A stretch of DNA of 10,895 bases from UHGV virus genome UHGV-1779514; one strand, written 5' to 3'. The notes beneath the pieces are model-generated. The model ran no database searches. It was not told where the DNA came from and was given only the letters and a program-made list of their open reading frames with translations. Each line of letters begins with the position of its first letter. Within the stretch, counting starts at the first letter, position 1. Position numbers and translations under genes: made by a program. Below are positions 1 to 10,433 of the stretch, piece after piece. The stretch is from a virus.

Positions 1-92
1 TCTTCTGCTGGCAGTACAACGTTGCTACCAGGTCCGTATGTTTCGCGCCACTGCTTGATTGTCAGTAGTCGCTCTTTGGTTATAGTGGTCAT
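1..92 (-). CDS. hypothetical phage protein, 3' end cut by window edge (begins MTTITKERLLTIKQWRETYGPGSNVVLPAEE)
   Basis: ATG at 92..90 overlaps the TGA stop (91..89) of the upstream gene (ATGA coupling). Frame stays open to position 1. Absent from ORF track because no stop lies in the window. Confidence 0.4.
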   Translation of the reverse strand, partial: MTTITKERLLTIKQWRETYGPGSNVVLPAE

Positions 93-298
93 TTGTTAAC
101 CCTCAAAACTTTATGCCCGGGCGCAAAAGCACGCGTTTTGTCTTTGCTTATTCGCCAGCCATCCTTGCGCGCCTCTTTTGCACAGCCAGCCCATGACGTA
201 CCTATATACTCACCGAAGTCTGGCACTGGATATACACCTTCCGTGCACTGACGGCAGTCACAATAGAGATGCATTGTGTAACTTGCGGCAATAGCCAT
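89..298 (-). CDS. small Cys-rich phage protein, 69 aa (CxCxxC plus a distal Cys; possible metal binding)
   Basis: ORF track entry. ATG at 298..296 sits immediately after the stop region of the 300..734 gene; its own stop overlaps the next ATG. Confidence 0.5.
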   Translation of the reverse strand: MAIAASYTMHLYCDCRQCTEGVYPVPDFGEYIGTSWAGCAKEARKDGWRISKDKTRAFAPGHKVLRVNK

Positions 299-299
299 A

Positions 300-734
300 T
301 CACCCTCCTTTACCCTGAAGCATGGCGTCGCTCCGCTCTATACCATCCAGCGCGATTCGCAGTGCCTGAATTGTGGTAGTGCTATCGTTTGGGGCTATTC
401 CATATCGCTCGAATACAGCTAAATGGTTGCGCATAATCTCAGGCGTAAGCTCTTTGTAAGCATAAGCAAGAGGCTCTGATGCATTATCCGGCACAACCGA
501 CGCAGGCGCGGCAGCATAAACAGGAATAACGTCCGCTTGCTCTTTATTGCTTTCATCCGTTAAAGCCCAGAATAATTTCCCGGCCGGATGTTTGAAAATA
601 TAAGCAATTGGTTCTGCTTCCAGCGATGCCAGAGCAATTTCATACGACCGTCGCTCAATATTGTCTCGCACGTCCAGGCTGCTGATACGCTCTTTGATTT
701 CTTTAATCAGTTCTTTGTCGGTTAAAGTAGTCAT
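300..734 (-). CDS. hypothetical phage protein, 144 aa
   Basis: ORF track entry. ATG at 734..732 preceded by AGAGGA with ~7 nt spacing. Upstream gene stop (740..738) lies 3 nt away. Confidence 0.55.
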   Translation of the reverse strand: MTTLTDKELIKEIKERISSLDVRDNIERRSYEIALASLEAEPIAYIFKHPAGKLFWALTDESNKEQADVIPVYAAAPASVVPDNASEPLAYAYKELTPEIMRNHLAVFERYGIAPNDSTTTIQALRIALDGIERSDAMLQGKGG

Positions 735-737
735 GTG

Positions 738-887
738 TTAGTCCTCTGTAGCAGGTGATACGCCGTAGTTGCATTCTTCATAGAATATGTCTCTGCCTAT
801 TTCTTCGGCATCCTCTGGCGTGTCTGCTTCAAACTCAACAACCTTGCAATCATTAAATCCTTCGATAGTCACGATGTACTTAGCCAT
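738..887 (-). CDS. small strongly acidic protein, 49 aa (MAKYIVTIEGFNDCKVVEFEADTPEDAEEIGRDIFYEECNYGVSPATED)
   Basis: Internal ATG of track ORF 738..959. Minus-sense reads AAAGGAGAGTGAT-ATG: a strong Shine-Dalgarno, with the upstream ORF's TGA stop 1 nt before the ATG. The longer track start would lack an RBS and overlap the upstream ORF. Confidence 0.55.
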   Translation of the reverse strand: MAKYIVTIEGFNDCKVVEFEADTPEDAEEIGRDIFYEECNYGVSPATED

Positions 888-888
888 A

Positions 889-1077
889 TCACTCTCCTTT
901 AGTGCGCAAGTGGTTTTTCCAGCGGTTTTGCGCCGCGCTGGGCTTTTTGCAAAAACCACAATCCATCATCCCGTAATATTTCATCAACCCCATCCGTCGG
1001 TTGCTGAGTCTCACCCACTGCCAGACGCCAGGAGCGTTTCTACGAACTAACAGAATCTTTGCTTTACGGTTTTTCAT
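889..1077 (-). CDS. small basic protein, 62 aa (MKNRKAKILLVRRNAPGVWQ...)
   Basis: ORF track entry. ATG at 1077..1075 overlaps the TGA stop of the upstream 58-codon ORF (ATGA). Stop is 1 nt before the ATG at 887. Confidence 0.4.
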   Translation of the reverse strand: MKNRKAKILLVRRNAPGVWQWVRLSNRRMGLMKYYGMMDCGFCKKPSAAQNRWKNHLRTKGE

Positions 1078-1250
1078 CTTACAGCGTACCCTTTCTTCCG
1101 CCTGTTCTGTGACGCAGTAGGCTTACGCTTTGCGGCAAAAGCCACCTGACCAAATGGATGGAGTACCGCTATCTTATGGTTGCTAATAACCAGCTCCACC
1201 ACACGCACAGGTCGCTGTAAAAAAAGTCGTTTTGCCTTACGGTTTTTCAT
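1074..1250 (-). CDS. small basic protein, 58 aa (MKNRKAKRLFLQRPVRVVELVISNHKIAVLHPFGQVAFAAKRKPTASQNRRKKGYAVR); shares its first 7 codons with the 889..1077 ORF
   Basis: Hand-translated; below the ORF-track size cutoff. ATG at 1250..1248, TGA at 1076..1074. The ~20-nt start region is repeated at 1057..1077 and 1231..1250. Confidence 0.35.
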   Translation of the reverse strand: MKNRKAKRLFLQRPVRVVELVISNHKIAVLHPFGQVAFAAKRKPTASQNRRKKGYAVR

Positions 1251-1342
1251 CGCTTTGCTCTCCTGCGTCTCTTTGCTGCTCGTCGTGCCGCTGCAATACC
1301 GGTATGGCGGCGCTTTGGTGCCGGGATGATGTTGTCAGCCAT
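1247..1342 (-). CDS. possible 31-aa Lys/Arg-rich micro-ORF (MADNIIPAPKRRHTGIAAARRAAKRRRRAKR)
   Basis: Hand-translated. ATG at 1342..1340; TGA stop overlaps the ATG of the 1074..1250 ORF (ATGA). No clear Shine-Dalgarno, so weak. Confidence 0.2.
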   Translation of the reverse strand: MADNIIPAPKRRHTGIAAARRAAKRRRRAKR

Positions 1343-1422
1343 CAGGACATGTGGCTTTGCAATTAGCGCAGAAGCCCAAAAACGAGTCGGGTACGGCAAC
1401 AAGCCGATACATGCCACACGCA

Positions 1423-1911
1423 CTACTCACCTCCGTTGATGCGAATGCCTGTTGCAATGCTGTTTATGATGCTGTCAGTGCATGGGGTAGAAAGCTGGGC
1501 ATCTCCAGCAATTTTCATGACATCAACATCTGCATATCGAATACCGAGGTGTATCAGACCGGCTATACCTGACTTAAGCCGAGCATTTTCCATAAACAGA
1601 TCCTTTGCCCGCTGTTTTTCTGCCTCAAGCTCAACGCGCAACTTCCCTACCGTTAGCGCAATATCCTCGTTCTCCTGGTCGCGTGATTTGATGTATTGCT
1701 GGTTCCTTTCCCGTTCATCCAGTAGTGCCAGCACGGTTTCTGGTCCGGCCAGAAATTTGAAGGCGTTGAGCGCATCAATATCCACACCGTAATCTTTAAG
1801 TTCCTGTTCACTTAACAAATCATCATCAGCTGGCAACATTAACAGGCGTTCCATTGCTGGAATTGCACGTTCCGCCGCCTCACGCAGTGCCTGGTAATTA
1901 ATTTCGCTCAC
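1423..1911 (-). CDS. Ead/Ea22-like phage protein, 162 aa
   Basis: ORF track entry. N-terminus MSEINYQALREAAERAIP is paralogous to the upstream gene's MTIDYQVLREAAEKATP; also a shared ...LALLDE / ...LELLGE segment. GTG start at 1911..1909 overlaps the upstream TGA (GTGA). Family assignment from memory. Confidence 0.6.
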   Translation of the reverse strand: MSEINYQALREAAERAIPAMERLLMLPADDDLLSEQELKDYGVDIDALNAFKFLAGPETVLALLDERERNQQYIKSRDQENEDIALTVGKLRVELEAEKQRAKDLFMENARLKSGIAGLIHLGIRYADVDVMKIAGDAQLSTPCTDSIINSIATGIRINGGE

Positions 1912-2675
1912 TGGTTGCCTCCTTTGCGAAGCTGGGCAGCAAAGTCAACTAACCACTCAGTCATTTCAACCTTCCCTACCAGATCTGAACCAGGGTGCAT
2001 ACAGCAATCACTCTGCGCCGCTTTGAAAGCCTTATACTCATATTCTTGGGCCACCAGATTTTTTGCAGCTTCTATAGCAGCATCCAATCCCTGCGCCCGC
2101 ACTTCAGCCAGGCATTTGCGAAACTCGGAAACGTACTGTTCGACGCTCATTCCCCAGCTAAGTGGACATTCATTGAATGTTTCGCCTTCGTGCTCTTCAT
2201 CAGGTAGCTCTTTGGTAAAGAACTCACGCTCAATGGCGTGGAGTGTGTCAGCAAAACGACGTAAGTTACTCAAACCTACCGTAATGGAGAATTCAGGAGC
2301 ATCACATCCGACGCCCATCTGCTGATAAACGGCGGTTTTGAAGGCCTTAAGCCCCGCATTTTCCGCCACCAGCGCCGCGAGATTAGTCTCAAGCTCTGCA
2401 ATTCGACACATAGCATCAATATTTGTGTCCTCCAGGCACTTAATTTCACCAAGCAGCTCCAGTGCAACCTTTGGGTTGAACGCGGCAACATGACGAGCGT
2501 TGTTCTCTGCATTTTTCTGTCCATCAAAGCCGGTCCATTTGATAACGTCTTCACATCGTTCATCACCGGGCGTGTGCACCGCATAAGTACCAGTATCCGT
2601 CGAAATAAATGCGACCCATTCGTCTGGTGTTGCCTTTTCTGCCGCCTCACGCAGTACCTGATAGTCAATTGTCAT
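1908..2675 (-). CDS. Ead/Ea22-like phage protein, ~255 aa
   Basis: Track ORF 1908..2684. I prefer the ATG at 2675..2673: it overlaps the upstream gene's TGA (ATGA), has GAAGG 9 nt upstream, and gives an N-terminus (MTIDYQVLREAAEKA) that aligns with the downstream paralog. Confidence 0.6.
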   Translation of the reverse strand: MTIDYQVLREAAEKATPDEWVAFISTDTGTYAVHTPGDERCEDVIKWTGFDGQKNAENNARHVAAFNPKVALELLGEIKCLEDTNIDAMCRIAELETNLAALVAENAGLKAFKTAVYQQMGVGCDAPEFSITVGLSNLRRFADTLHAIEREFFTKELPDEEHEGETFNECPLSWGMSVEQYVSEFRKCLAEVRAQGLDAAIEAAKNLVAQEYEYKAFKAAQSDCCMHPGSDLVGKVEMTEWLVDFAAQLRKGGNQ

Positions 2676-3298
2676 TCTCGCCATCCTTCACAGTTGTAAT
2701 CACTACAGCCTTCAAAATCATATGGGCTGTACTGCCAGGTTATTTTTCCGCAATGCGGACAATTCCAACGCACCTTCCCGCTTCGCGACTTCTTTCTTCT
2801 GTTTTGCTTTTTCAACCAGTCAGGCATGACCAAACCTGCGCCCTGAACCATTGTTCTGCGGTTAAAATTATTGATATTGAACGTCCGCCGCTTTGCTGCA
2901 TCGGCAATGGAAAATGGCAACCAAACTATTCCTGGTTCGTTTTTGTTGGCGACGCTAAAGATGGTTGCTTTACTGAAGTCATCGGTTGGCAATCCACCGT
3001 GTTGAAGCCAGTAAACATCGTTGCCGTTCCAGCTACCTTTTTTGTAGGCCACATACGCAGTGCAATCTGACTCAATCAGGCTTTCTGTAGGGATGTACTG
3101 GCAATCAACGTGCCACACAGCCATTGCATCCACACTATCGGCACAAACAGGCTGATCGATATCTCGCCCACAATTCCAGGCTTTTTGGGCTTCTTCCAGC
3201 GTGTAAACATGAGCGCGATCGATATCAGAACTGTAACCATTGCCGTTATGGCAATGGAATGAGGCGTTATTACCCACAGTTTCACGCAAACACATCAT
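2672..3298 (-). CDS. hypothetical Cys/His-rich phage protein, ~208 aa, with C-terminal CPHC...C..C zinc-ribbon-like motif
   Basis: Track ORF 2672..3352 begins with GTG and would overlap the upstream gene by 40 nt. ATG-ATG at 3298..3293 lies 14 nt after the upstream stop and is the more likely start. No family recognised. Confidence 0.5.
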   Translation of the reverse strand: MMCLRETVGNNASFHCHNGNGYSSDIDRAHVYTLEEAQKAWNCGRDIDQPVCADSVDAMAVWHVDCQYIPTESLIESDCTAYVAYKKGSWNGNDVYWLQHGGLPTDDFSKATIFSVANKNEPGIVWLPFSIADAAKRRTFNINNFNRRTMVQGAGLVMPDWLKKQNRRKKSRSGKVRWNCPHCGKITWQYSPYDFEGCSDYNCEGWRE

Positions 3299-3312
3299 GT
3301 AAAAACGGTTGC

Positions 3313-3552
3313 TCACTGGATGCCTCCTTGGTGGAGTTGCGCTGCGATGCACGAAAAAAAAGACTCCCGAGTATGACTGTTAAGAGCTGGTGCGAACGCC
3401 TCGTTAAGAACGGCGGCATCACAGCCGTCATCAATATAGAGCGCAATTTTTTTCTCCAGGCGCGCTTTGGCTTCCTGCAACTGCATACCCCGGCACGCAC
3501 GCGGGATATAATCAGCAATTTGAGCGATAGCTTTTTCGTTCTGTTTAAACAT
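3313..3552 (-). CDS. hypothetical phage protein, 79 aa
   Basis: ORF track entry. ATG at 3552..3550 preceded by GAGGTG (4-nt spacer). Overlaps the upstream ORF's 3' end by 8 nt. Confidence 0.5.
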   Translation of the reverse strand: MFKQNEKAIAQIADYIPRACRGMQLQEAKARLEKKIALYIDDGCDAAVLNEAFAPALNSHTRESFFSCIAAQLHQGGIQ

Positions 3553-3748
3553 GCTTCACCTCGATAGGCTTGATGGTGTCTAACAGCAGTCGGCGGCGCG
3601 TATTTTCTGCAAAATGGCGGCGTCCAGTTTCTTTGTGGTAAAACTCGTTTTTGCCAACGACCCACATCCGCTCTGTTTGGTGCAGTTTTTTTACCTTCGG
3701 GCCATCTTTGGTGATCACGGTACCGGTATGGGTTTTTACGATTGTCAT
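3545..3748 (-). CDS. hypothetical basic phage protein, 67 aa
   Basis: ORF track entry. ATG at 3748..3746 with a weak AGGT-type Shine-Dalgarno. First gene after an 83-nt gap downstream of the ASCH-like gene. Confidence 0.5.
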   Translation of the reverse strand: MTIVKTHTGTVITKDGPKVKKLHQTERMWVVGKNEFYHKETGRRHFAENTRRRLLLDTIKPIEVKHV

Positions 3749-3831
3749 GCCACTACCTATTCGAACAGATGAACGAGACAGGCCGATGCTCGTCCACCTG
3801 AAAAACTGACGATTTGATGCATACTCACGGT

Positions 3832-4560
3832 TTATTCCTGAATGCGCTTAAACTCGATTACCCACACCCAGGGATTAGCGTTCCAGCTTTCTTCACCATA
3901 GATGGATTCCCACAGGCGCTGGAACGCAACCTTGGCCATTGCGAAATCCCCCTTGGGAGTAAGGAATGTTCCCGGGTGATCAGGAAGCAAACTTCCAGCA
4001 GGCGGAACGCCCTCATCCCTTGCATCGCATTCGCTGATATTGTTCAACCGCTCAACGCGCACGTTGGTAATTTCCAACAGGATGCGTGATGCCCAGCGCG
4101 GCATGTGAATTGATGGACGCCACCCACCATCAAACTTTTCATTCACAGTGTGAGGTTTCCAGTCGGCATCATCGGGTATCGACCATAAACCGTAATCACC
4201 AGGCTTTTGCTCACAACTGGCCCGATAAATCCTTGCTGCGTTCTTCTCATCGCCACGACAAAGGTTGTCGTTCCAGTCCACACTGCAACCATCTTCATTG
4301 CCTAATATCGCCCATGTTTCACGAACCCAAATTCGATCGCCGACGATACCAAAGGGGCAATTGAAAACACTGCTTACACCATCAGCCCCGTACCACTGAA
4401 AACCTGCACCAATTTCCCTAACCATCACTGGTGCTTCTGGACCAACTTCCGCAGGCTGATTTTTCATTATCCGCCGCGTCTGCGTTTTCCTTCCTTCGAG
4501 GATGGCTCGGACCATCTCATCGTTGAAAATCATGCCGCGCTCTTTCACTTCGCCTTTCAT
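3832..4560 (-). CDS. ASCH-domain-like (PUA-fold) protein, 242 aa
   Basis: ORF track entry. N-terminal MIFNDEMVRAILEGRKTQTRR matches the G-x-K-T-x-x-R opening motif I associate with ASCH domains; C-terminal WVWVIEFKRI is also typical. True start may be the second ATG (Met10). GGGGGA lies 3 nt before the first ATG. Confidence 0.5.
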   Translation of the reverse strand: MKGEVKERGMIFNDEMVRAILEGRKTQTRRIMKNQPAEVGPEAPVMVREIGAGFQWYGADGVSSVFNCPFGIVGDRIWVRETWAILGNEDGCSVDWNDNLCRGDEKNAARIYRASCEQKPGDYGLWSIPDDADWKPHTVNEKFDGGWRPSIHMPRWASRILLEITNVRVERLNNISECDARDEGVPPAGSLLPDHPGTFLTPKGDFAMAKVAFQRLWESIYGEESWNANPWVWVIEFKRIQE

Positions 4561-4569
4561 GCATCCCCC

Positions 4570-4656
4570 TTACCCATGCGCGACGATGCCGCAAAAAGTG
4601 ATAGAGAACAGCCAGAAATAGATCGCGGCCATAATGATTTTGAATGCCGTGTTCAT
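4570..4656 (-). CDS. 28-codon hydrophobic micro-ORF (MNTAFKIIMAAIYFWLFSITFCGIVAHG), probable single transmembrane helix
   Basis: Hand-translated; below track cutoff. Minus-sense reads CAGGAGCTGAAAAT-ATG (AGGAG, 8-nt spacer). TAA stop at 4572..4570 is 9 nt before the ASCH-like ATG. Confidence 0.35.
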   Translation of the reverse strand: MNTAFKIIMAAIYFWLFSITFCGIVAHG

Positions 4657-4684
4657 ATTTTCAGCTCCTGTGATTGATTGGATA

Positions 4685-4714
4685 CATGCCGCGCCTTACG
4701 GCATGTTTTTATTT
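4685..4714 (+). terminator. intrinsic-terminator-like hairpin on + strand (CATGCCG-cgcctta-CGGCATG followed by TTTTTATTTT)
   Basis: 7-8 bp GC-rich stem then a T-rich run on the + strand only. No + strand gene ends here; minus-sense flank is not U-rich. Confidence 0.4.
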
Positions 4715-4726
4715 TCACTTTCTCTG

Positions 4727-4757
4727 GTTTAAAAATCAAGATTTATTAGAGCAATTA
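4727..4757. repeat. downstream copy of ~30-bp imperfect direct repeat (GTTTAAAAAT-N7-TTATTAGAGCAAT) at the cassette boundary
   Basis: 13-mer TTATTAGAGCAAT at 4743..4755 is identical to 6884..6896; the flanking TTTAAAAAT is also shared. About 26 of 33 positions match. Overlaps the HAD gene stop codon. Confidence 0.6.
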
Positions 4758-5261
4758 TTGTTGATGGAGAAGCGCGTTTTCATACTCCCTGACCATTAAC
4801 GTAAGTACGCCGTGACTCCTGAAAACACGCGCCACTTCAATCTTATCTTCCAGCGCGAACGCAATTTTACTTAGACCAATTTTCTTCAGGAGATCAATCT
4901 TTGCTGGACCGTCATTTCTGTCATCGGTGGCAGGACGCATAGATAGCAAAGGCTCCGCCCCATTTGTTACGTGCTTACGCAACCAGGCTCGTGTTTTATC
5001 CCTTGCTATCTCACAGCGCCCGGTTACAAACCAGAGGGTGTAAATGCCGGACAACTGGCGCACCATATCAATAACTGGAGTGATGGGAGCATCAGTGTCA
5101 CAGGCAAGGTTAAACTCGTTCCAGTGCTCTGTTAATGCACCTTTGCCAGGTGGTGGAAGTAAATGCAGTCTGTCTTCCGTTGCCTCTGATATCGTCCCAT
5201 CAATATCTACTATGACGATGTACGGACGTTCCTGGTGTGCGTGTTTATTGAAAATACTCAA
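4755..5261 (-). CDS. HAD-superfamily phosphatase, 168 aa (possibly polynucleotide 3'-phosphatase or nucleotidase type)
   Basis: ORF track entry. Motif I VDIDGT (DxDGT) near the N-terminus, later TGR and ALEDK acidic motif. TTG start at 5261..5259 with AGGAGG 4 nt upstream and an in-frame TGA just before it. Subfamily is a guess. Confidence 0.6.
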   Translation of the reverse strand: MSIFNKHAHQERPYIVIVDIDGTISEATEDRLHLLPPPGKGALTEHWNEFNLACDTDAPITPVIDMVRQLSGIYTLWFVTGRCEIARDKTRAWLRKHVTNGAEPLLSMRPATDDRNDGPAKIDLLKKIGLSKIAFALEDKIEVARVFRSHGVLTLMVREYENALLHQQ

Positions 5262-5278
5262 ATGCCCTCCTCATTGGA

Positions 5279-5314
5279 CGAAAAAAATGCTGGTGGGAGC
5301 ACTCCACCAGCATT
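5279..5314 (-). terminator. strong rho-independent terminator (minus sense) between the 420-aa gene and the HAD gene
   Basis: Perfect 10-11 bp GC-rich stem (5286..5296 pairs with 5304..5314, loop 5297..5303). Minus-sense RNA then carries a run of 7 U. + strand flank is not U-rich, so it is unidirectional. Confidence 0.65.
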
Positions 5315-5333
5315 AAAAGTGACACTGTAACTA

Positions 5334-6596
5334 TCAGCGAACGTAAATAGTGCCGCCGTTCTCTTTTTCCCATGCATCGCTACGTGCATAGCAAACATCG
5401 AGAAGTCTTCTTGCCGCAGTTTCCTCTAAACCCAATTCGACAACCAACTGCTCATGACGGCGGGTAACCACATCAAACAGGGTATGCAACCCTTTAGTTG
5501 CCAGATCATCAATGAATTCCGGTTCGAACGGCAGCTCTGTATCTGCCAACATAACCTCTTGCGCCCACTCAACTCGACGGACCAATTCCGGGCGGCGGCT
5601 TTCCATCTCTTTACAGATCAATTCATGGAAGAACTCTACCCAACCTTCCGGCTGGAACTCGCGGAAAATTGCCAACGGCTGGAAGTTTGGCATCAACCAT
5701 TCGTTGATTCGGATATCAATGGCATAGCCCATGTCGCAGCAGAACTGATAAGCAAAGTCCAGCTTAGAAACGATATAAGGACGCTCGTTATTGAACTCTT
5801 TAGGCGATGAGATCCCATAAGCCAGGAGGCGCGGGAAGAAGGAGATTTGCCCTAACGTCGGATGAAGTTTGCTTGCAGGGAAACGGCGCTCAGTAATGCC
5901 ATACATTTCCTTCTTGAGCGTCGCAAATTTGGCATTCTCATTAACCAGCGCGGTAACCTCTGCTTTTTTATTAGCAAATGCCACGCGCGCCTCGCTTGCA
6001 TCTTTAATAGTTTTTTTGAGCTGTTGGTTAAGGTCGGCGACCTGCTTACGCAGTTCCTGTCGCTCGCTTTTAGCTTTGTTATAGCGTTTCTCAAGGTTAA
6101 AAGGATCAAGTTTCATGATCTCTTTATATTGAGATTTTAGCGTTGAAATCTGTGAGTTCCGCAGTTCAACCATCGCGGTCATTTCATTGAGTTTTGTTTC
6201 CAGCTCAATGCTTATACGTTCGGCATTATCAGCACGCTGGTTGGCGTCATGCGTCGCATCGTCGATCGCGTCCTGTTGCTGGCGTTTCAAATGTTCAATT
6301 TCCAGCTGAAGCTCTTCAATTTCTTTACCCTTCAGACCGAGATCCAACTGCATATTTTCAGCTGCATCTACCAGGGAGTTATGGCTATCAGCTTCTGCGT
6401 TATAAACATCAATAAGCTGTGCGTGAAGCATCTCCGCTGACTGAACCGCATTATCAAAAAAACGCGCTGTGAGGTCATCACAACTAACGCGGCGTTGCGC
6501 GGCCCGGATGTTCTGGATAATGGCCGGGATACCGGCATTCAGGACATCAGGGATACATACATTTTCGATTGATTGGTTTTGTGCTGAAGTGCTCAT
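5334..6596 (-). CDS. coiled-coil protein of unknown function, 420 aa (coiled coil ~aa 85-230, globular C-terminal domain ~190 aa)
   Basis: ORF track entry. ATG at 6596..6594 lies 1 nt after the TGA of the upstream 72-aa ORF. Heptad-rich E/K/Q/L region. No Walker A, ligase KxDG or nuclease motif recognised. Confidence 0.65.
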   Translation of the reverse strand: MSTSAQNQSIENVCIPDVLNAGIPAIIQNIRAAQRRVSCDDLTARFFDNAVQSAEMLHAQLIDVYNAEADSHNSLVDAAENMQLDLGLKGKEIEELQLEIEHLKRQQQDAIDDATHDANQRADNAERISIELETKLNEMTAMVELRNSQISTLKSQYKEIMKLDPFNLEKRYNKAKSERQELRKQVADLNQQLKKTIKDASEARVAFANKKAEVTALVNENAKFATLKKEMYGITERRFPASKLHPTLGQISFFPRLLAYGISSPKEFNNERPYIVSKLDFAYQFCCDMGYAIDIRINEWLMPNFQPLAIFREFQPEGWVEFFHELICKEMESRRPELVRRVEWAQEVMLADTELPFEPEFIDDLATKGLHTLFDVVTRRHEQLVVELGLEETAARRLLDVCYARSDAWEKENGGTIYVR

Positions 6597-6597
6597 T

Positions 6598-6816
6598 TCA
6601 AAGTTCCGTATTAGCTTGTGCTTCGGTCATTTTTCCTAAGTATGAAGGAGGAAGGACTACGCAATTTGTATCCAGTCCCTCACCTATGGCAGCCTGTAAA
6701 ATTCTGGCTAAGGTGAGTCTCTTGTTGCGATACCTGGTGATGACATGCCTGATACCGCCGGTCGGCGTAACAAAGGCGATCAGCCAGTAGTGATATTTCC
6801 GTCGGAATGGCCACAT
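6598..6816 (-). CDS. small basic protein, 72 aa, first gene of the cassette
   Basis: ORF track entry. ATG at 6816..6814 preceded by AAGGTG (4-nt spacer). Stop tightly coupled to the 420-aa gene. No family recognised. Confidence 0.45.
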   Translation of the reverse strand: MWPFRRKYHYWLIAFVTPTGGIRHVITRYRNKRLTLARILQAAIGEGLDTNCVVLPPSYLGKMTEAQANTEL

Positions 6817-6830
6817 AGTGCACCTTGTAG

Positions 6831-6843
6831 ATTGCTCTAATAA
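6831..6843. repeat. inverted copy (ATTGCTCTAATAA) of the boundary 13-mer; forms a 13-bp palindrome with 6884..6896 around the terminator hairpin
   Basis: Exact reverse complement of TTATTAGAGCAAT at 6884..6896, 40 nt apart. Confidence 0.6.
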
Positions 6844-6876
6844 AAAACGTGATGAGTGTACATCACGTTTTAAAAA
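6838..6876 (-). terminator. hairpin terminator after the GT8-like gene (stem AAAACGTGATG / CATCACGTTTT, loop 6855..6860); A-run upstream and T-run downstream, so potentially bidirectional
   Basis: 11-bp inverted repeat at 6844..6854 and 6861..6871. Minus-sense RNA has UUUUUUAUUA after the stem. Stem is moderately AT-rich, so strength is uncertain. Confidence 0.45.
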
Positions 6877-6898
6877 TATGGAATTATTAGAGCAATAT
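6868..6898. repeat. upstream copy of the ~30-bp imperfect direct repeat (TTTTAAAAAT-N7-TTATTAGAGCAAT) at the cassette boundary
   Basis: See 4727..4757. This copy ends 2 nt before the GT8-like gene's TAA stop (6898..6900). Confidence 0.6.
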
Positions 6899-7599
6899 TA
6901 TTCTGATTCTCGCTCAAAAAATGAGCTGATAAGGGGAAGCCAATCCTCTGACACTTCGCGAGGTCGCGGTTTGCCGTGGAAAAAGATTATTCGGCAGTCT
7001 TTTGGTAATGCCCCATTCCCCCTGGAGTAACGCGCGCTCGCATATTTTGAACCAGGTTCCACAACATCGGCCTTGTAACTTACAAACCATCCTGGATACA
7101 GATCCTGAAATGCTGGTGTATCATCGCCCATAACCTTTCGTAAGAACCCCTGGTCACCCCAACACTCAGTAGTGACACAACGAGAAATCCAACCTTCCGG
7201 ATCTTGCCAGAATGCACTCCAGATATGCGCTTTAACACTATTTGGTATCCACAGGGCACCGCTGCCACGATATTGTGGATGGTAAAAATCCCTAAGCATG
7301 GTGAAGCTGGTTGGTGGATGCTCTAGGATTGGGCGTATATCACCGGCAATAACCGTGTCCAAATCCAGATAGAACAGATCATCGGTTATATCCGGTCGGA
7401 ACAACTCGATTTTCGCCCACCAGCCACGGCACTTTTGCCACTGGTTGATCAATGGGACAACTTTGACGCCAGGTACATGTAAACGCTTCAGGTCTGTCAG
7501 GCAAATAATTTCATAGCCTTTTGGCAGTTGATTAACCAGCCACTGCACATCGGAAGCGTTATAGTCACCACCAGAGCGAAAAACTAAAGCAATCTTCAT
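6898..7599 (-). CDS. GT8-family-like (glycogenin / LPS alpha-glycosyltransferase-like) putative retaining glycosyltransferase, 233 aa
   Basis: ORF track entry. Ordered motifs resemble GT8 as I recall it: N-terminal ALVF..GGDY, DxD-type LDLDT near aa 80, GDQG near aa 150, FFHGKPRP near the C-terminus. ATG at 7599..7597 overlaps the phosphatase TGA (ATGA); AGGTGA 9 nt upstream. Confidence 0.5.
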
Positions 7600-8273
7600 G
7601 CTGCACCATCACCTTTCACTTTCATCAATGTCAGGTTTCCGCAAAATACGGCACCAGTGTCGATATACTGCTGATTCCAGAATGTCTTCGGGCTTTTCAC
7701 CGGAGTGTGACCAAAGATAAAACGATCTGCGCCCGAAATTTCGCCACCAATATCATCCATCGAATCACTGATACGCTCGCGCGCCCAGACAACGTTGAAA
7801 AGCGGCACCTCCTTACCGAATTGGTATTCATTATCCGGATAGTCGGCATGGGCTATAACGATAGTTTCTTGCCCGGTGTTCAACTCAATGATATAGGGCA
7901 GACGCTTTACCAGCTCCACCAGCGCCCAGGCTAATATTTCCTGATCAGTGTCCAGCATGAAGAACCATTGTCCGCCATTCATTAGCCAGTTATTCACGTT
8001 GCCATCTGGACTTAACGCATCAATCATCAGCCGCTCATGGTTCCCCATCACTGCCCTGAACCAGGGCATCTGCAATAGTTCCAGACATTCGACATTTTCA
8101 GTACCGCGATCGATAAGGTCGCCGACCGATATCAGTAAATCCTGCGCCGGGTCAAAATCCACACGATGGAGTTCGGACATCAGTCTGGTGTAGCAACCAT
8201 GCAGATCACCAACAACCCAGACATTCCTGTATTTGGTACCGTCGATACGGTGATAAATTGTGGGTGCCATCAT
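7596..8273 (-). CDS. lambda-type (PPP family) Ser/Thr protein phosphatase / metallophosphoesterase, ~225 aa
   Basis: Canonical GDLHG, GDLIDRG and GNHE motifs, with the overall sequence closely resembling lambda PPase and E. coli PrpA/PrpB as I recall them. Track ORF starts at 8288; the ATG at 8273..8271 overlaps the upstream TGA (ATGA) and matches the lambda PPase N-terminal length, so I prefer it. Confidence 0.85.
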
Positions 8274-8896
8274 GTATTCTTCAGCCATTCTTTAAGAGTC
8301 ATCTGCGGAATACCTCCCATTTTCCCGCATGAAACAACGTCAATCTGTTCACGCGCAGACTGGAATAACAAAGGCAGGTGACTTAGATTTTTTGGCGTGC
8401 CGCCGGAGTGAACGCGTAGTTCTTGCGTAGCGTCAACGCCCACCAGAGCTACATGTTTGAATCCGATATGGAAAGCCAGGTTCAGAGCACCATATGCACT
8501 ATTGCCGCTGGCAATTTCATTCTCATCTTCGCAAAGGCCGAAATGTGCGGACCAGCGCCACGCCCACCACTCGGGAGAATTCGTATTTTTTGGCTCCATG
8601 CCGCGTTCAGCCACACGACGGAAGCACAGAACGCCATCTCTGACTTCACGTTCTTTAACATCGGGTAGTGCCATGCAATAACAAACACCACGGCGACGGC
8701 GGCCACGACCAACGCGCCGCATATTGTCTGGGGATGGATCAAGGGTGAAAAAATAAGAAGCGCGGTTAAGCCAGTCGATGGCCCCATTGACCGCTATAAT
8801 CGGCACTCCGCGCGGCGCAACAAAGTTTGCGGCGCTTGGGCCACTGCCGACGATAATAACGCGATCACTGCCTCTAAATTTATTCTTGGGAAACAT
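8270..8896 (-). CDS. GT42/DUF115-like (Cst-II / Maf-like) putative nonulosonate-type glycosyltransferase, paralog B, 208 aa
   Basis: ORF track entry. N-terminal VIIVGSGPS...IIAVN, then [25 protein letters not shown] and a following HSGG. Paralogous to 8794..9456. ATG at 8896..8894 with AGGAG ~12 nt upstream. Family call from memory. Confidence 0.45.
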
Positions 8897-9456
8897 TGAA
8901 TTGCACTGCTCCTACTTGCATTCAAAATATGTAAATCTGCGTGTTTTTTGCGGGTATCCAGGAACTGCTGTTGCCATTTTGAAATAGACACCTGCGTTGG
9001 ATTCCGTAGTGCTTGAGGGTGCGCGCCATGCCAATGAAGGCCGTTTTGCAGAGAACAGTCATAGCCGACTAATACCACTACTTCAGCCCCTGATTCAGCA
9101 GCCAGACTGATAGCCTGCGCGCCGCTATTTACCCCTTCCGCCGGTCCACAATATCGCCTGTACTCCAACGAAAATGATTTCGCCGCCGCCAGGTTGGCTG
9201 TCACTTTGCGGAATCTCCCTCCCGGTATGGTGGATCCGTATTGCTTCCACCATGACAAATCACCGGCGTATAAGGCATAAATGTCATCGAACATCTGCCA
9301 GGAATTGTTAACCGCGATGATTGAACAGCCAGTTTTTTCTATAGCAGCACAGTCCTCACGAGTGAGTGACGGACCGCTACCGACACAAAAAACAGTCCTA
9401 GTCGCCCTGGGTGGTATGTTCATTCTCAGCTGCAAATTCAGCCTCCAGGCGAGCAT
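8794..9456 (-). CDS. GT42/DUF115-like (Cst-II / Maf-like) putative glycosyltransferase, paralog A, 220 aa
   Basis: ORF track entry. VFCVGSGPS...IIAVN, then NSGAQAISLAAESGAEVVVLVGYD and HWHGAH. Start could be the ATG at 9456 or at 9423; neither has a strong Shine-Dalgarno. 3' end overlaps paralog B by 103 nt in another frame. Confidence 0.45.
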   Translation of the reverse strand: MLAWRLNLQLRMNIPPRATRTVFCVGSGPSLTREDCAAIEKTGCSIIAVNNSWQMFDDIYALYAGDLSWWKQYGSTIPGGRFRKVTANLAAAKSFSLEYRRYCGPAEGVNSGAQAISLAAESGAEVVVLVGYDCSLQNGLHWHGAHPQALRNPTQVSISKWQQQFLDTRKKHADLHILNASRSSAIQCFPRINLEAVIALLSSAVAQAPQTLLRRAECRL

Positions 9457-9619: not shown

Positions 9620-9952
9620 TTAAGCGGCATGCAACCACTTATCGCCGTTCAATACATGCTCAATAGCCTCACCCTTTTTAAGACTTATGTATTCCAGGAT
9701 GGCGGTAATCGCTTGTTCTGCACCATACGCAAGAACAACGTAGTAGCCTTCCTCTCTAAGCCTGCGCATCCAGGCGATCTGCTCTTTCGTCGGGGCTTTA
9801 CCATTTGGTTCTTTAAGCTCAATTCGCATGCCGTGATAAATACCGCATGCTTTATCGAGACTCATGTCCGGATAACCTTTTTTCTGCCCTTCAGCCTTCA
9901 TTTTCCCGGCGGTTGCTTTTGAACGCTTCCCTCCGTTAGGCGTTGCATGCAA
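9620..9952 (-). CDS. VRR-NUC domain (PD-(D/E)xK) nuclease, C-terminal portion; gene appears frame-disrupted at its 5' end
   Basis: Track ORF starts at TTG. GYPDMSL ... IELKEP ... KEQIAWMRRLREEGYYVV matches the VRR-NUC pattern (G.PD, ExK, Q..W...L...G). The same frame stays open upstream to ~10132 with no start codon, encoding CEHFEQVFIFDYFERKHPDIYEL. Confidence 0.6.
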   Translation of the reverse strand: MHATPNGGKRSKATAGKMKAEGQKKGYPDMSLDKACGIYHGMRIELKEPNGKAPTKEQIAWMRRLREEGYYVVLAYGAEQAITAILEYISLKKGEAIEHVLNGDKWLHAA

Positions 9953-10187
9953 CAGCTCATAGATGTCAGGGTGCTTGCGTTCGAAGTAATCAAAAATGAA
10001 AACCTGCTCGAAGTGCTCGCAATTTCCGTCGCGCAGGTCTGGGTTCTTTGCCAGTGCTGCAAGTGCCTTCGCATGTGGAGAAACTTCTTTTACCGGCGCA
10101 AGCGATTTTTGGTTTTTGGCCTGGACCGCCCCTTATTTCGACGCTCACTAAAAGCCTGAAACTCTTCCTCAGTAAAGCGCAACATAA

Positions 10188-10433
10188 TCAGTCAAATCCT
10201 GCCGGTCGCATGCCATATTTACGCTGTTTTGCGGCCTGCTCTTCCCTGTGCCATTGCGCACATTCAGCGTCACAATAAATGCCTGATTCAATCGATTCAT
10301 TGCAGTAACGACACTTCCCTGTAAATACCTGGCTCACGACCTGTGCCTGCTTTCTGATGTTATCGATGGCCATGTCTTTGAGAGCTTCTAACTGATTCAT
10401 GCTCAGCTCTGCATCATCAACACGTTCTGCCAA
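10188..10433 (-). CDS. TraR/DksA-family-like C4 zinc-finger protein, 81 aa
   Basis: ORF track entry. IDNIRKQ ... CRYCNESIESGIYCDAEC ... KQRK resembles TraR as I recall it (INRIRQKI ... CEAC ... CVEC ... RQRK). TTG start with GAGGAA ~6 nt upstream. My base count near 10380 disagrees by 1 nt with the track frame, so the start is +/-1. Confidence 0.5.
   Translation of the reverse strand: MAERVDDAELSMNQLEALKDMAIDNIRKQAQVVSQVFTGKCRYCNESIESGIYCDAECAQWHREEQAAKQRKYGMRPAGFD

Follow-up and report, generated by a model that had tools for sequence, protein, structure and literature searches.

PmgS of a P1-like phage-plasmid is predicted to join a coiled-coil hairpin of fixed arm length to a new alpha/beta domain and a Rad51-type (HhH)2 module

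The DNA analyzed here, referred to as the window, is a stretch of 10,895 nucleotides (nt) from the virus genome UHGV-1779514. An earlier sequence-only reading had picked out in it an open reading frame (ORF) for a 420-residue coiled-coil protein, and had linked this to a small basic ORF upstream as a possible defense or anti-defense pair. On the basis of sequence identity, we assign the 420-residue ORF as pmgS of bacteriophage P1, the 72-residue upstream ORF as pmgR, and the window as a P1-like phage-plasmid. New here are the predicted split of the C-terminal region of PmgS into two domains, the predicted coiled-coil hairpin of fixed length that precedes them, and a picture of the protein family and its genomic contexts that moves pmgS out of morphogenesis. 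Our best guess is that PmgS is an early, DNA-associated accessory or counter-defense factor.

The ORF starts with ATG and encodes 420 residues plus a stop on the minus strand, as do all plausible genes of the window, which confirms the coding region as it had been called (Table 1). Its product matches PHROG 1660 (“PmgS-like head morphogenesis”) over residues 1–420 with an E value of 5.6e-195 and shares 416 of 420 residues with P1 PmgS (AAQ14063; 99.05% identity), the four substitutions being I2S, S14C, Q99E and A353T; 11 nt differ between the two genes, four of them non-synonymously. PmgR of the window is 100% identical to P1 PmgR. A megablast search with positions 4500–7700 returned 19 phage records at 97.8–99.1% identity, all of which are P1, P7 or P1-like phage-plasmids; in these the ORF carries the annotation pmgS (shtB in P7) and the small ORF pmgR (shtA in P7). 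The P1 order pmgQ–pmgR–pmgS–pap, with C1 operators Op86a/b upstream and the terminator, is kept in the window; P1 PmgS and P7 ShtB are the same gene in the same surroundings. The window diverges from P1 further downstream, from ~3865, and there follows P7-type phage-plasmids. PmgS has been catalogued since the 2004 annotation of P1 and is not a new gene. That it is a real gene under selection is indicated by its 99% identity to P1, by relatives in 795 plasmid records and by 99 cluster representatives (see below). The earlier reading was therefore a correct description of a real gene that had already been annotated and already deleted experimentally, and its statement that the protein has no assigned function holds, even though the gene carries a name.

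The labels attached to PmgS (“putative morphogenetic”, “head morphogenesis”, “sheath contraction”) are nominal and have no experimental basis, because the deletion mutant forms normal plaques and PmgS is absent from both the virion proteome and the cryogenic electron microscopy (cryo-EM) structure. Phage with an in-frame pmgS deletion is viable, has normal plating and anti-restriction, and is restricted in the usual way on EcoA, EcoB and EcoK (PMC9024508, Table S3; Gonzales et al. 2022), and pmgS goes unmentioned in the main text and tables of that paper, including the virion proteome obtained with LC-MS/MS. CRISPR interference (CRISPRi) also classed pmgS as non-essential, with an efficiency of plating (EOP) of 1.2 (PMC10695390; Piya et al. 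2023). Deletion of pmgR is lethal and is complemented in trans; it yields free tails and incomplete heads but nothing infectious, which is the same picture as that of the packaging mutant pacA (PMC9024508). A dCas12a roadblock in pmgR, which the authors describe as polar on downstream genes, gave an EOP of 0.94, and they list pmgR alongside four further essential genes that CRISPRi did not detect (PMC10695390). Neither PmgR nor PmgS is found in the protein inventory of the near-complete P1 cryo-EM structure, in which the connector is complete as Prt–PmgC–gp7–gp24 (PMC12810830); the role of PmgR in obtaining joined particles is thus not that of a resolved virion part. Both genes are among the 21 that are full-length in 77 of 77 P1-like phage-plasmids surveyed (PMC9603915). 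Two preprints also touch on pmgS: one lists it, together with hdf, kilA, parA and lpa, as a region of P1 where enrichment of small guide RNAs of the short Argonaute system SPARDA is highest (10.1101/2023.06.08.544223), and the other reports that pmgS is over-induced in a host deleted for hfq at 10 and 20 min.

Prediction of full-length PmgS by AlphaFold2 (AF2) from a nine-sequence alignment (predicted local distance difference test score, pLDDT, 72.5) gave a helix at residues 15–35, two long helices at 41–153 and 166–232 separated by a low-confidence break at 154–165, an alpha/beta region at 252–347 and finally four short helices at 359–412. The long helices bear out the central coiled-coil segment of the sequence-only reading, as do weak matches of the coil region to the arms of SMC, Rad50, LmuB and JetC, the only ones found for that region. 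The SMC and Rad50 scores are 16–22 bits against cut-offs of 567–1000, and LmuB and JetC match the arm region only, with E values of 1e-2 to 1e-5. Scans of P1-type PmgS against Pfam, NCBIfam and PADLOC gave nothing over threshold and no P-loop, nuclease family or ligase family, in agreement with what had been stated. Pfam and NCBIfam gave no match outside the coiled coil, and an ABC ATPase head or Walker motifs were not found.

The uncharacterized domain of ~190 residues that had been proposed does lie at the C-terminus, but the models indicate two domains in its place: an alpha/beta domain and a Rad51-N-terminal-like (HhH)2 domain. Residues 226–356, modeled alone with a 55-sequence alignment, gave a confident structure (pLDDT 88.8; predicted template modeling score 0.79). 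A Foldseek search of this model against BFVD returned nothing below E 0.1, and the domain profile matched only designed helical repeats among PDB sequences; judged by these searches, the alpha/beta domain has no structural relative and would represent a new fold. Its motifs are LDF/W-x-[YH], (I/V)NEW-x-P and HP/RP-x-L-V-x-R-x-E-W-A, and the residues conserved across the family (G233, G290, W300, P303, P316, P336, L338, R341, W344 and A345) look structural rather than like a catalytic acid/base set.

Sequence data from relatives agree with the second domain. Pfam HHH_5 is matched at 1.4e-7 within the aligned stretch of P0029, the most distant relative found by word search, which is 27% identical; among 55 family members, 15 match HHH_5 and 11 match RNA_pol_A_CTD, and some match RadA and RuvA profiles (N-terminal or domain II). 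The PmgS C-terminal module conforms to the five-helix (HhH)2 fold with two helix-hairpin-helix motifs. The structure prediction and remote-homology search that the sequence-only reading had suggested for this region thus yielded a confident alpha/beta model without a relative and profile matches to HhH proteins. In P1-type sequences the (HhH)2 domain is acidic, with a net charge of -4 to -6 against a family median of 0, and the second hairpin is degenerate: 46 of 82 members keep the G-phi-G hairpin, the consensus for contacting the DNA backbone, and the six P1-type sequences have all lost it (they read ELGLEE, NYDLTPE and similar).

The extent of the family became visible only by exhaustive search. 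A word-indexed search with the single sequence found 29 relatives, nearly all P1-like, and the same type of search with a 55-sequence profile returned almost only P1-like copies. A hidden Markov model (HMM) of the C-terminal 190 residues, run against 1.84 billion cluster representatives, recovered 99 proteins at E<=1e-3, 47 of them at E<=1e-10, all representatives of 50%-identity clusters. Most of them are 340–470 residues long and match at their C-terminus, and so share the architecture of PmgS. Family motifs comprise D-E-Y-N at the start of coiled-coil arm 1, and L-K/R-x-L-x(3,4)-P-x-x-L-K at the apex between the arms. Arm 2 closes with D-G, the alpha/beta domain carries LDWH, (V/I)-x-E-W-x-P and H-P-x-L-V-x-R-x-E-W-A, and the second HhH carries K-G-phi-G-x-x-T-A.

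The three anchor residues are all retained in 43 members, which were used to count arm lengths. Arm 2, measured between the apex proline and the glycine of D-G, has exactly 68 residues in 31 of the 43, at pairwise identities of 15–25%. Arm 1, from the DEYN asparagine to the apex proline, has 70 residues in the commonest class, 92 in P1-type members and 99–172 in a few others. The 70/68 pair fits what an intramolecular antiparallel hairpin predicts, given the secondary structure predicted by AF2, and the invariant arm 2 suggests that the stalk is constrained to a length of ~100 Å, calculated at 1.5 Å per residue. There is no CxxC hook or hinge domain at the PmgS apex, where two long helices are parted by a conserved proline turn.

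Two further features of the family were noted. A C-terminal -AA (for example ...KAA, ...EAA or ...VAA) is present in 28 of 82 members (among P0040–P0112), far above chance; P1-type PmgS ends in ...YVR and another subgroup in ...WTREQRGLN. The -AA tails presumably resemble the ssrA-type C-terminal tag recognized by ClpXP. The idea that such a tail and PmgR are alternative ways of limiting PmgS was tested and is unsupported, since P0056 (locus L019) has both and the counts (1 of 8 versus 27 of 74) are too few. In some E. coli records (P0002, P0016 and P0005), PmgS is fused in the called proteins to a C5-methyltransferase fragment (480 residues, PF00145) or a metallophosphoesterase (463 residues, PF00149). 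Gene-calling artefacts, or else deletions or insertions, around pmgQ and pmgR of P1-like elements probably account for these fusions.

The small upstream ORF is basic (10 K/R versus 4 D/E, counted from the sequence), and a single base separates its TGA stop from the pmgS ATG (...TTTGAAATGAGC...), so the tight coupling noted earlier is real. Equally real are the repeats that had been taken to bound a cassette, a 28-nt direct repeat at 4728–4755 and 6869–6896 with an inverted copy at 6831–6844. Their interpretation changes, however: the C1 operator consensus ATTGCTCTAATAAATTT has four matches in the window against 0.04 expected, and the repeats are C1-repressor operators of an annotated P1 operon, not as mobile-element ends or the limits of an unrecognized cassette. 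The P1 annotation, carried over with an offset of +501 between the window and locus L001, describes Op86a/b as an element that “controls expression of pmgR and pmgS” and Op88 as the start of the pmgT unit. The strong terminator proposed downstream of pmgS was found as a stable hairpin (Table 1). A second hairpin, at 6844–6871, appears to end the upstream pmgN–pmgQ unit and should stop transcripts arriving from pmgQ; it should not form in pmgR mRNA, because its left arm overlaps the -10 element of PpmgR. An Rfam scan of the window matched no RNA family. With C1 operators flanking its predicted promoter and terminator hairpins on either side, pmgR–pmgS is thus an insulated, C1-repressed two-gene operon, which would be silent in lysogens and switched on by infection or induction.

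Most of the 795 PLSDB plasmids that carry a relative are P1-like. A tblastn search of phage records placed members in Pseudomonas phage 15b, Vibrio phages douglas 12A4 and 1F273_PE002, Aeromonas phages phiARM81mr and ST4, and Cronobacter phage JK004. Outside P1-type phages, the homolog sits in an early, pL-like operon between repressor and integrase genes, and PmgR is absent. The order is repressor–YfdP–YfdQ–homolog–methyltransferase–...–integrase in a Photobacterium prophage (L006) and in Vibrio phage 1F273_PE002 (L015), and CI–...–exonuclease VIII–RecT–int–small ORF–homolog–x–Dam-like methylase–exonuclease in phiARM81mr. A methyltransferase follows the homolog in douglas 12A4 (homolog–methyltransferase), and a C5-methylase precedes it in a metagenomic phage-plasmid (L007; C5-methylase–small ORF–homolog). 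Aeromonas phage ST4 and L011 have the order ADP-ribosyltransferase–x–NUDIX–x–DUF4942 protein–homolog, and a Vibrio plasmid-like contig (L009) has int/small ORFs–homolog–x–Rv2179c-like exonuclease, with genes for RdgC and TrfA in the vicinity. In five of seven independent non-P1 contexts, the homolog has a bona fide DNA methyltransferase no more than two genes away; this is a raw count without a background rate, and the methyltransferase neighborhood is a lead, not a result. At the P1-type locus L018, an SSB gene lies three genes downstream.

The conserved early module YfdP–YfdQ(DUF2303)–PmgS-like–DNA methyltransferase occupies 7687–10736 of L006 and 3682–6762 of L015, both from Vibrionaceae temperate phages. 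For the E. coli CPS-53 yfdQRST cluster, overexpression is reported to inhibit replication initiation, and YfdR to bind DnaA (PMC4776307).

PmgR follows a different distribution from PmgS. In all nine P1-type lineages sampled, recognized by nearby DarB-like, Lpa or C1 genes, a PmgR homolog lies directly upstream of the PmgS homolog; these are P1/P7, L003, L008, L012/13, L017, L018, L020 and, more weakly, L019. The PmgR homologs share 29–43% identity (E values of 1e-4 to 1e-17), the gap between the two genes is -4 to +16 nt or the genes overlap, and the pairing holds down to ~20–27% PmgS identity. No PmgR homolog was found in six non-P1 lineages (L004, L005, L006/L015, L007, L009 and L011/L016), and the small ORFs upstream of the homologs in L005, L007 and L009 were checked as candidates and none is a PmgR homolog. 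The pair is therefore ancient within the P1 supergroup but not a property of the family. PmgR itself had no match among PDB sequences.

Comparison with known systems gives partial likenesses. The (HhH)2 domain has relatives in the N-terminal domains of Rad51/RadA and RAD51C/D, the NusA acidic repeats, the C-terminal domain of RNA polymerase alpha (alpha-CTD) and RuvA domain II. Unlike these proteins, PmgS has no recombinase, NusA or polymerase core, carries the module at its C-terminal end, behind a coiled coil and a new alpha/beta domain, and in P1-type members has lost the second G-phi-G and become acidic. With SMC/Rad50/MukB-type proteins, including JetC and LmuB, it shares a predicted folded-back coil with a conserved apex and arm length, a DNA-related head, and weak arm-to-arm sequence matches (for SMC/Rad50, including JetC and LmuB) that fall far below family cut-offs; it differs from them in lacking the ABC ATPase head and Walker motifs, in having a proline turn in place of a hinge or zinc hook, and in an arm of just ~68 residues. 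The non-P1 homologs resemble the lambda pL accessory genes gam, kil, ral and ea22 in lying downstream of a repressor among recombination, methylase and integrase genes, and pmgS resembles them in being dispensable for plaque formation. This likeness is one of position only, with no sequence or fold relationship; Ea22-like coiled-coil genes are present in the same window as pmgS.

We tentatively favor the view that PmgS is a non-structural accessory protein that acts on replicating or recombining phage DNA and not in particle assembly. In the proposed mechanism, PmgS would be made when C1 is absent, upon infection or induction, from its own insulated operon with pmgR. The coil would serve as a hairpin ruler, with an arm 2 of 68 residues (~100 Å) and a conserved, proline-containing apex. 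The head (alpha/beta plus (HhH)2) may dock through the (HhH)2 domain on DNA or on a DNA-bound protein, while the rigid stalk would hold the apex at a set distance, where it could contact a second copy or a partner. PmgS could then act on phage DNA during its replication or recombination, for instance to maintain or protect what will later serve as packaging substrate, and in P1-type phages it might work with, or be tuned by, PmgR. Its dispensability in laboratory E. coli K-12 would fit redundancy or a need in some hosts only. A role on DNA is in keeping with the neighbors of the non-P1 homologs (RecT, exonuclease VIII, RdgC, the Rv2179c-like exonuclease and DNA methyltransferases). The pmgR deletion phenotype, with free tails and incomplete, empty-looking heads as in pacA, fits this view as well: for an early protein outside the virion, a defect in the DNA substrate or in packaging would give just this outcome.

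Several points weigh against this proposal. PmgS has no biochemical or genetic phenotype. The acidic P1-type (HhH)2 domain and its degenerate second hairpin, next to an alpha/beta domain that is also net negative, fit protein binding better than DNA binding. The hairpin topology is a reading of the AF2 secondary structure and of arm-length statistics, and in P1-type members arm 1 exceeds arm 2 by 22 residues, which a simple symmetric hairpin does not explain. The methyltransferase and recombination neighbors may merely mirror where early accessory genes sit.

Alternatively, PmgS could be a counter-defense or host-takeover effector that binds a host protein and not DNA, neutralizing a defense or housekeeping machine that is absent from laboratory K-12 or not needed there. 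The acidic (HhH)2 domain might be used like the NusA acidic repeats or the alpha-CTD, or the coil might engage an SMC-type complex. We regard this as possible, if doubtful. It would account for a gene that is dispensable in K-12, yet intact throughout the 77 surveyed phage-plasmids, and for the company the family keeps in islands rich in genes of counter-defense type, among them a DarB-like methylase-helicase, methyltransferases, NUDIX plus a giant ADP-ribosyltransferase, the pap 3'-phosphatase and the ppp phosphatase; the acidic P1-type (HhH)2 domain with its degenerate DNA-binding hairpin points the same way. However, PmgS has no likeness to a known anti-defense protein (its PADLOC and NCBIfam matches are coiled-coil noise far under the cut-offs), the pmgS deletion mutant is restricted normally on EcoA, EcoB and EcoK, and most family members retain a canonical DNA-type hairpin. 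The opposite orientation, a prophage-encoded defense or exclusion pair active in lysogens as the sequence-only reading had suggested, is highly improbable. Its two-gene layout with a small basic partner and its location in an accessory region would suit such a system, but two C1 operators on the promoter imply that the operon is repressed in lysogens, which is what makes a defense role there unlikely; in other prophages the gene likewise sits in a repressed pL-like operon, PADLOC has no matching family, and PmgR has a lytic-cycle phenotype of its own. The lack of a phenotype and of expression in lysogens, which that reading had named as evidence against itself, is essentially what the pmgS deletion, CRISPRi and the operators indicate. 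Its tightly coupled pair is right, and its defense pair in a cassette mostly wrong.

The different fates of the two deletion mutants raise the question of antagonism. If PmgS harmed late development unless restrained by PmgR, in the manner of a toxin and its antidote, PmgR would be “essential” only because PmgS is present. A lethal pmgR deletion that is complemented in trans, a viable pmgS deletion and the close spacing or overlap of the genes in every P1-type lineage are compatible with this, and the EOP under the polar dCas12a roadblock would mean that lowering both products is tolerated. We nonetheless consider it quite unlikely: pmgR is one of five essential genes that CRISPRi missed, so a weak or leaky roadblock is the simpler reading; PmgS homologs occur without PmgR in six other lineages, so the pair does not always travel together; and the -AA degron failed as a replacement for PmgR, P0056 having both. 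Nor is the small partner a generic sensor or antidote: deletion of pmgR is lethal alone. The large protein also does without it in the non-P1 lineages. A virion morphogenesis factor (a scaffold, chaperone or sheath-associated protein), as the names Pmg, ShtB and the PHROG label say, is very unlikely and already largely refuted. Apart from the database names, it draws on the requirement of the operon partner PmgR for joined heads and tails and on the fact that coiled-coil proteins often act as scaffolds. Against it stand the normal plaques of the deletion mutant, the absence of PmgS from the virion proteome and cryo-EM model, a C1-controlled sigma-70-type promoter behind a terminator-like hairpin that should stop late-operon transcripts, and homologs that elsewhere lie in early, recombination or methylase regions, not structural modules.

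On a broader, unlikely reading, the family would form a new class of early proteins in phages and plasmids, in which a 68-residue coiled-coil ruler joins the conserved apex to a head of new alpha/beta fold plus (HhH)2. It would act on DNA or on an SMC-, RecBCD- or RNA polymerase-type host machine and would safeguard the phage genome from replication until packaging, or while the plasmid becomes established; in P1-type phages, the “essential head-completion gene” pmgR would be its partner or antagonist and not a virion part.

P1 serves E. coli genetics as a workhorse, resistance genes travel on P1-like phage-plasmids, and about half of the P1 genes still have no assigned function. A gene that is intact in every P1-like element surveyed and dispensable in the laboratory shows a pattern that often marks genes for particular hosts or defenses. 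The present analysis corrects the picture in that the products of pmgS and pmgR are not virion components, that PmgS appears to contain a new fold and a Rad51-like module, and that it belongs to a wider early-operon family. The misleading database labels “head morphogenesis” and “sheath contraction” are thereby corrected, a modest gain unless a phenotype appears.

Table 1. Coordinates of pmgR–pmgS, the predicted parts of PmgS and the control elements in the window.
Feature	Position	Strand	Evidence
pmgS coding sequence, 420 residues + stop; P7 shtB; PHROG 1660	5334..6596	-	ORF, PHROG match, 98–99% DNA identity to P1/P7/JL22
pmgR coding sequence, 72 residues, basic; P7 shtA; PHROG 3177; translationally coupled to pmgS	6598..6816	-	ORF, PHROG, P1 annotation
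PmgS residues 1–40, predicted N-terminal helix; motif AQRRVxCDDLxxRF conserved in P1-type members	6477..6596	-	invariant alignment columns; AF2 helix 15–35
PmgS residues 41–153, predicted coiled-coil arm 1; family motif D-E/S-Y/H-N (N73)	6138..6476	-	AF2 helix; family conservation of N73, L75, E80
PmgS residues 154–165, predicted apex KEIMKLDP; family pattern L-K/R-x-L-x(3,4)-P-x-x-L-K	6102..6137	-	helix break, low pLDDT; P165 in 82% of members
PmgS residues 166–232, predicted coiled-coil arm 2; apex proline to G233 exactly 68 residues	5901..6101	-	AF2 helix; family arm-length count
PmgS residues 233–352, predicted family-specific alpha/beta domain, 3–4 strands + 3 helices	5541..5900	-	
PmgS residues 355–412, predicted (HhH)2 domain of Rad51/RadA N-terminal, NusA-AR, RpoA alpha-CTD type	5361..5534	-	
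C1 operator Op86a (OpmgRa), overlaps -35 of PpmgR	6880..6896	-	operator match + P1 annotation
Predicted sigma-70 promoter PpmgR	-35 at 6890–6895, -10 at 6867–6872	-	P1 annotation
C1 operator Op86b (OpmgRb), inverted partner of Op86a	6831..6847	+	operator match, P1 annotation, inverted repeat
C1 operator Op88 (OpmgT), opens next C1-controlled unit; second copy of bounding repeat	4739..4755	-	operator match, direct repeat, P1 annotation
Intrinsic terminator ending pmgR–pmgS unit	5286..5314	-	hairpin, 11-bp stem then T-run; -18.1 kcal/mol, z -4.6 vs shuffles
Terminator-like hairpin between Op86a and Op86b	6844..6871	-	11-bp stem then U-run; -13.4 kcal/mol, z -5.4

Several neighboring genes of the window merit a brief description. 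Downstream of pmgS, the sole match of pap (4755–5261, minus strand) is to the HAD phosphatase domain of polynucleotide kinase-phosphatase (PF25109, 3e-11), and a kinase domain is absent. The gene has the pmgS terminator on one side and the next C1 operator on the other, and no promoter is annotated or was found before it (5262–5333). On the other side, pmgQ, pmgP and pmgO (6898–9456, minus strand) are “putative morphogenetic” genes that are glycosyltransferase-like, pmgQ belonging to PHROG 1962 (glycosyltransferase). The genes of L003 syntenic to pmgQ/P/O match PHROG 4603 (alpha-2,3-sialyltransferase), 2111 and 1962, and the pmgO/P/Q order is kept with pmgR–pmgS in the distant P1-type loci L003, L008, L018 and L020. 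Further along, pmgM (9620–10198, minus strand) seems to carry a frameshift or a truncation when compared with P1, because the 192-residue P1 PmgM aligns as two pieces in different frames (residues 1–26 at 10185–10108 and residues 32–192 at 10105–9623). The L003 gene syntenic to pmgM, upstream of the pmgO homolog, matches a PHROG annotated as Holliday-junction resolvase.

To the left of ~3865, pmgT is truncated at residue 232 and pmgU/V and the upf and hot genes of P1 are missing. Positions 1–3865 follow phage-plasmids of the P7/RCS47 type, with the Ead/Ea22-like coiled-coil genes at 1423–2684, and correspond to the known variable region H of P1-like plasmids (PMC9603915). A 67-residue ORF at 3545–3748 on the minus strand (MTIVKTHTGTVITKDG...GRR...RLLLDTIKPIE) resembles by eye the 62-residue ORF at 2911–3099 of L007, which lies directly upstream of the PmgS homolog there and with which it would form a small family.

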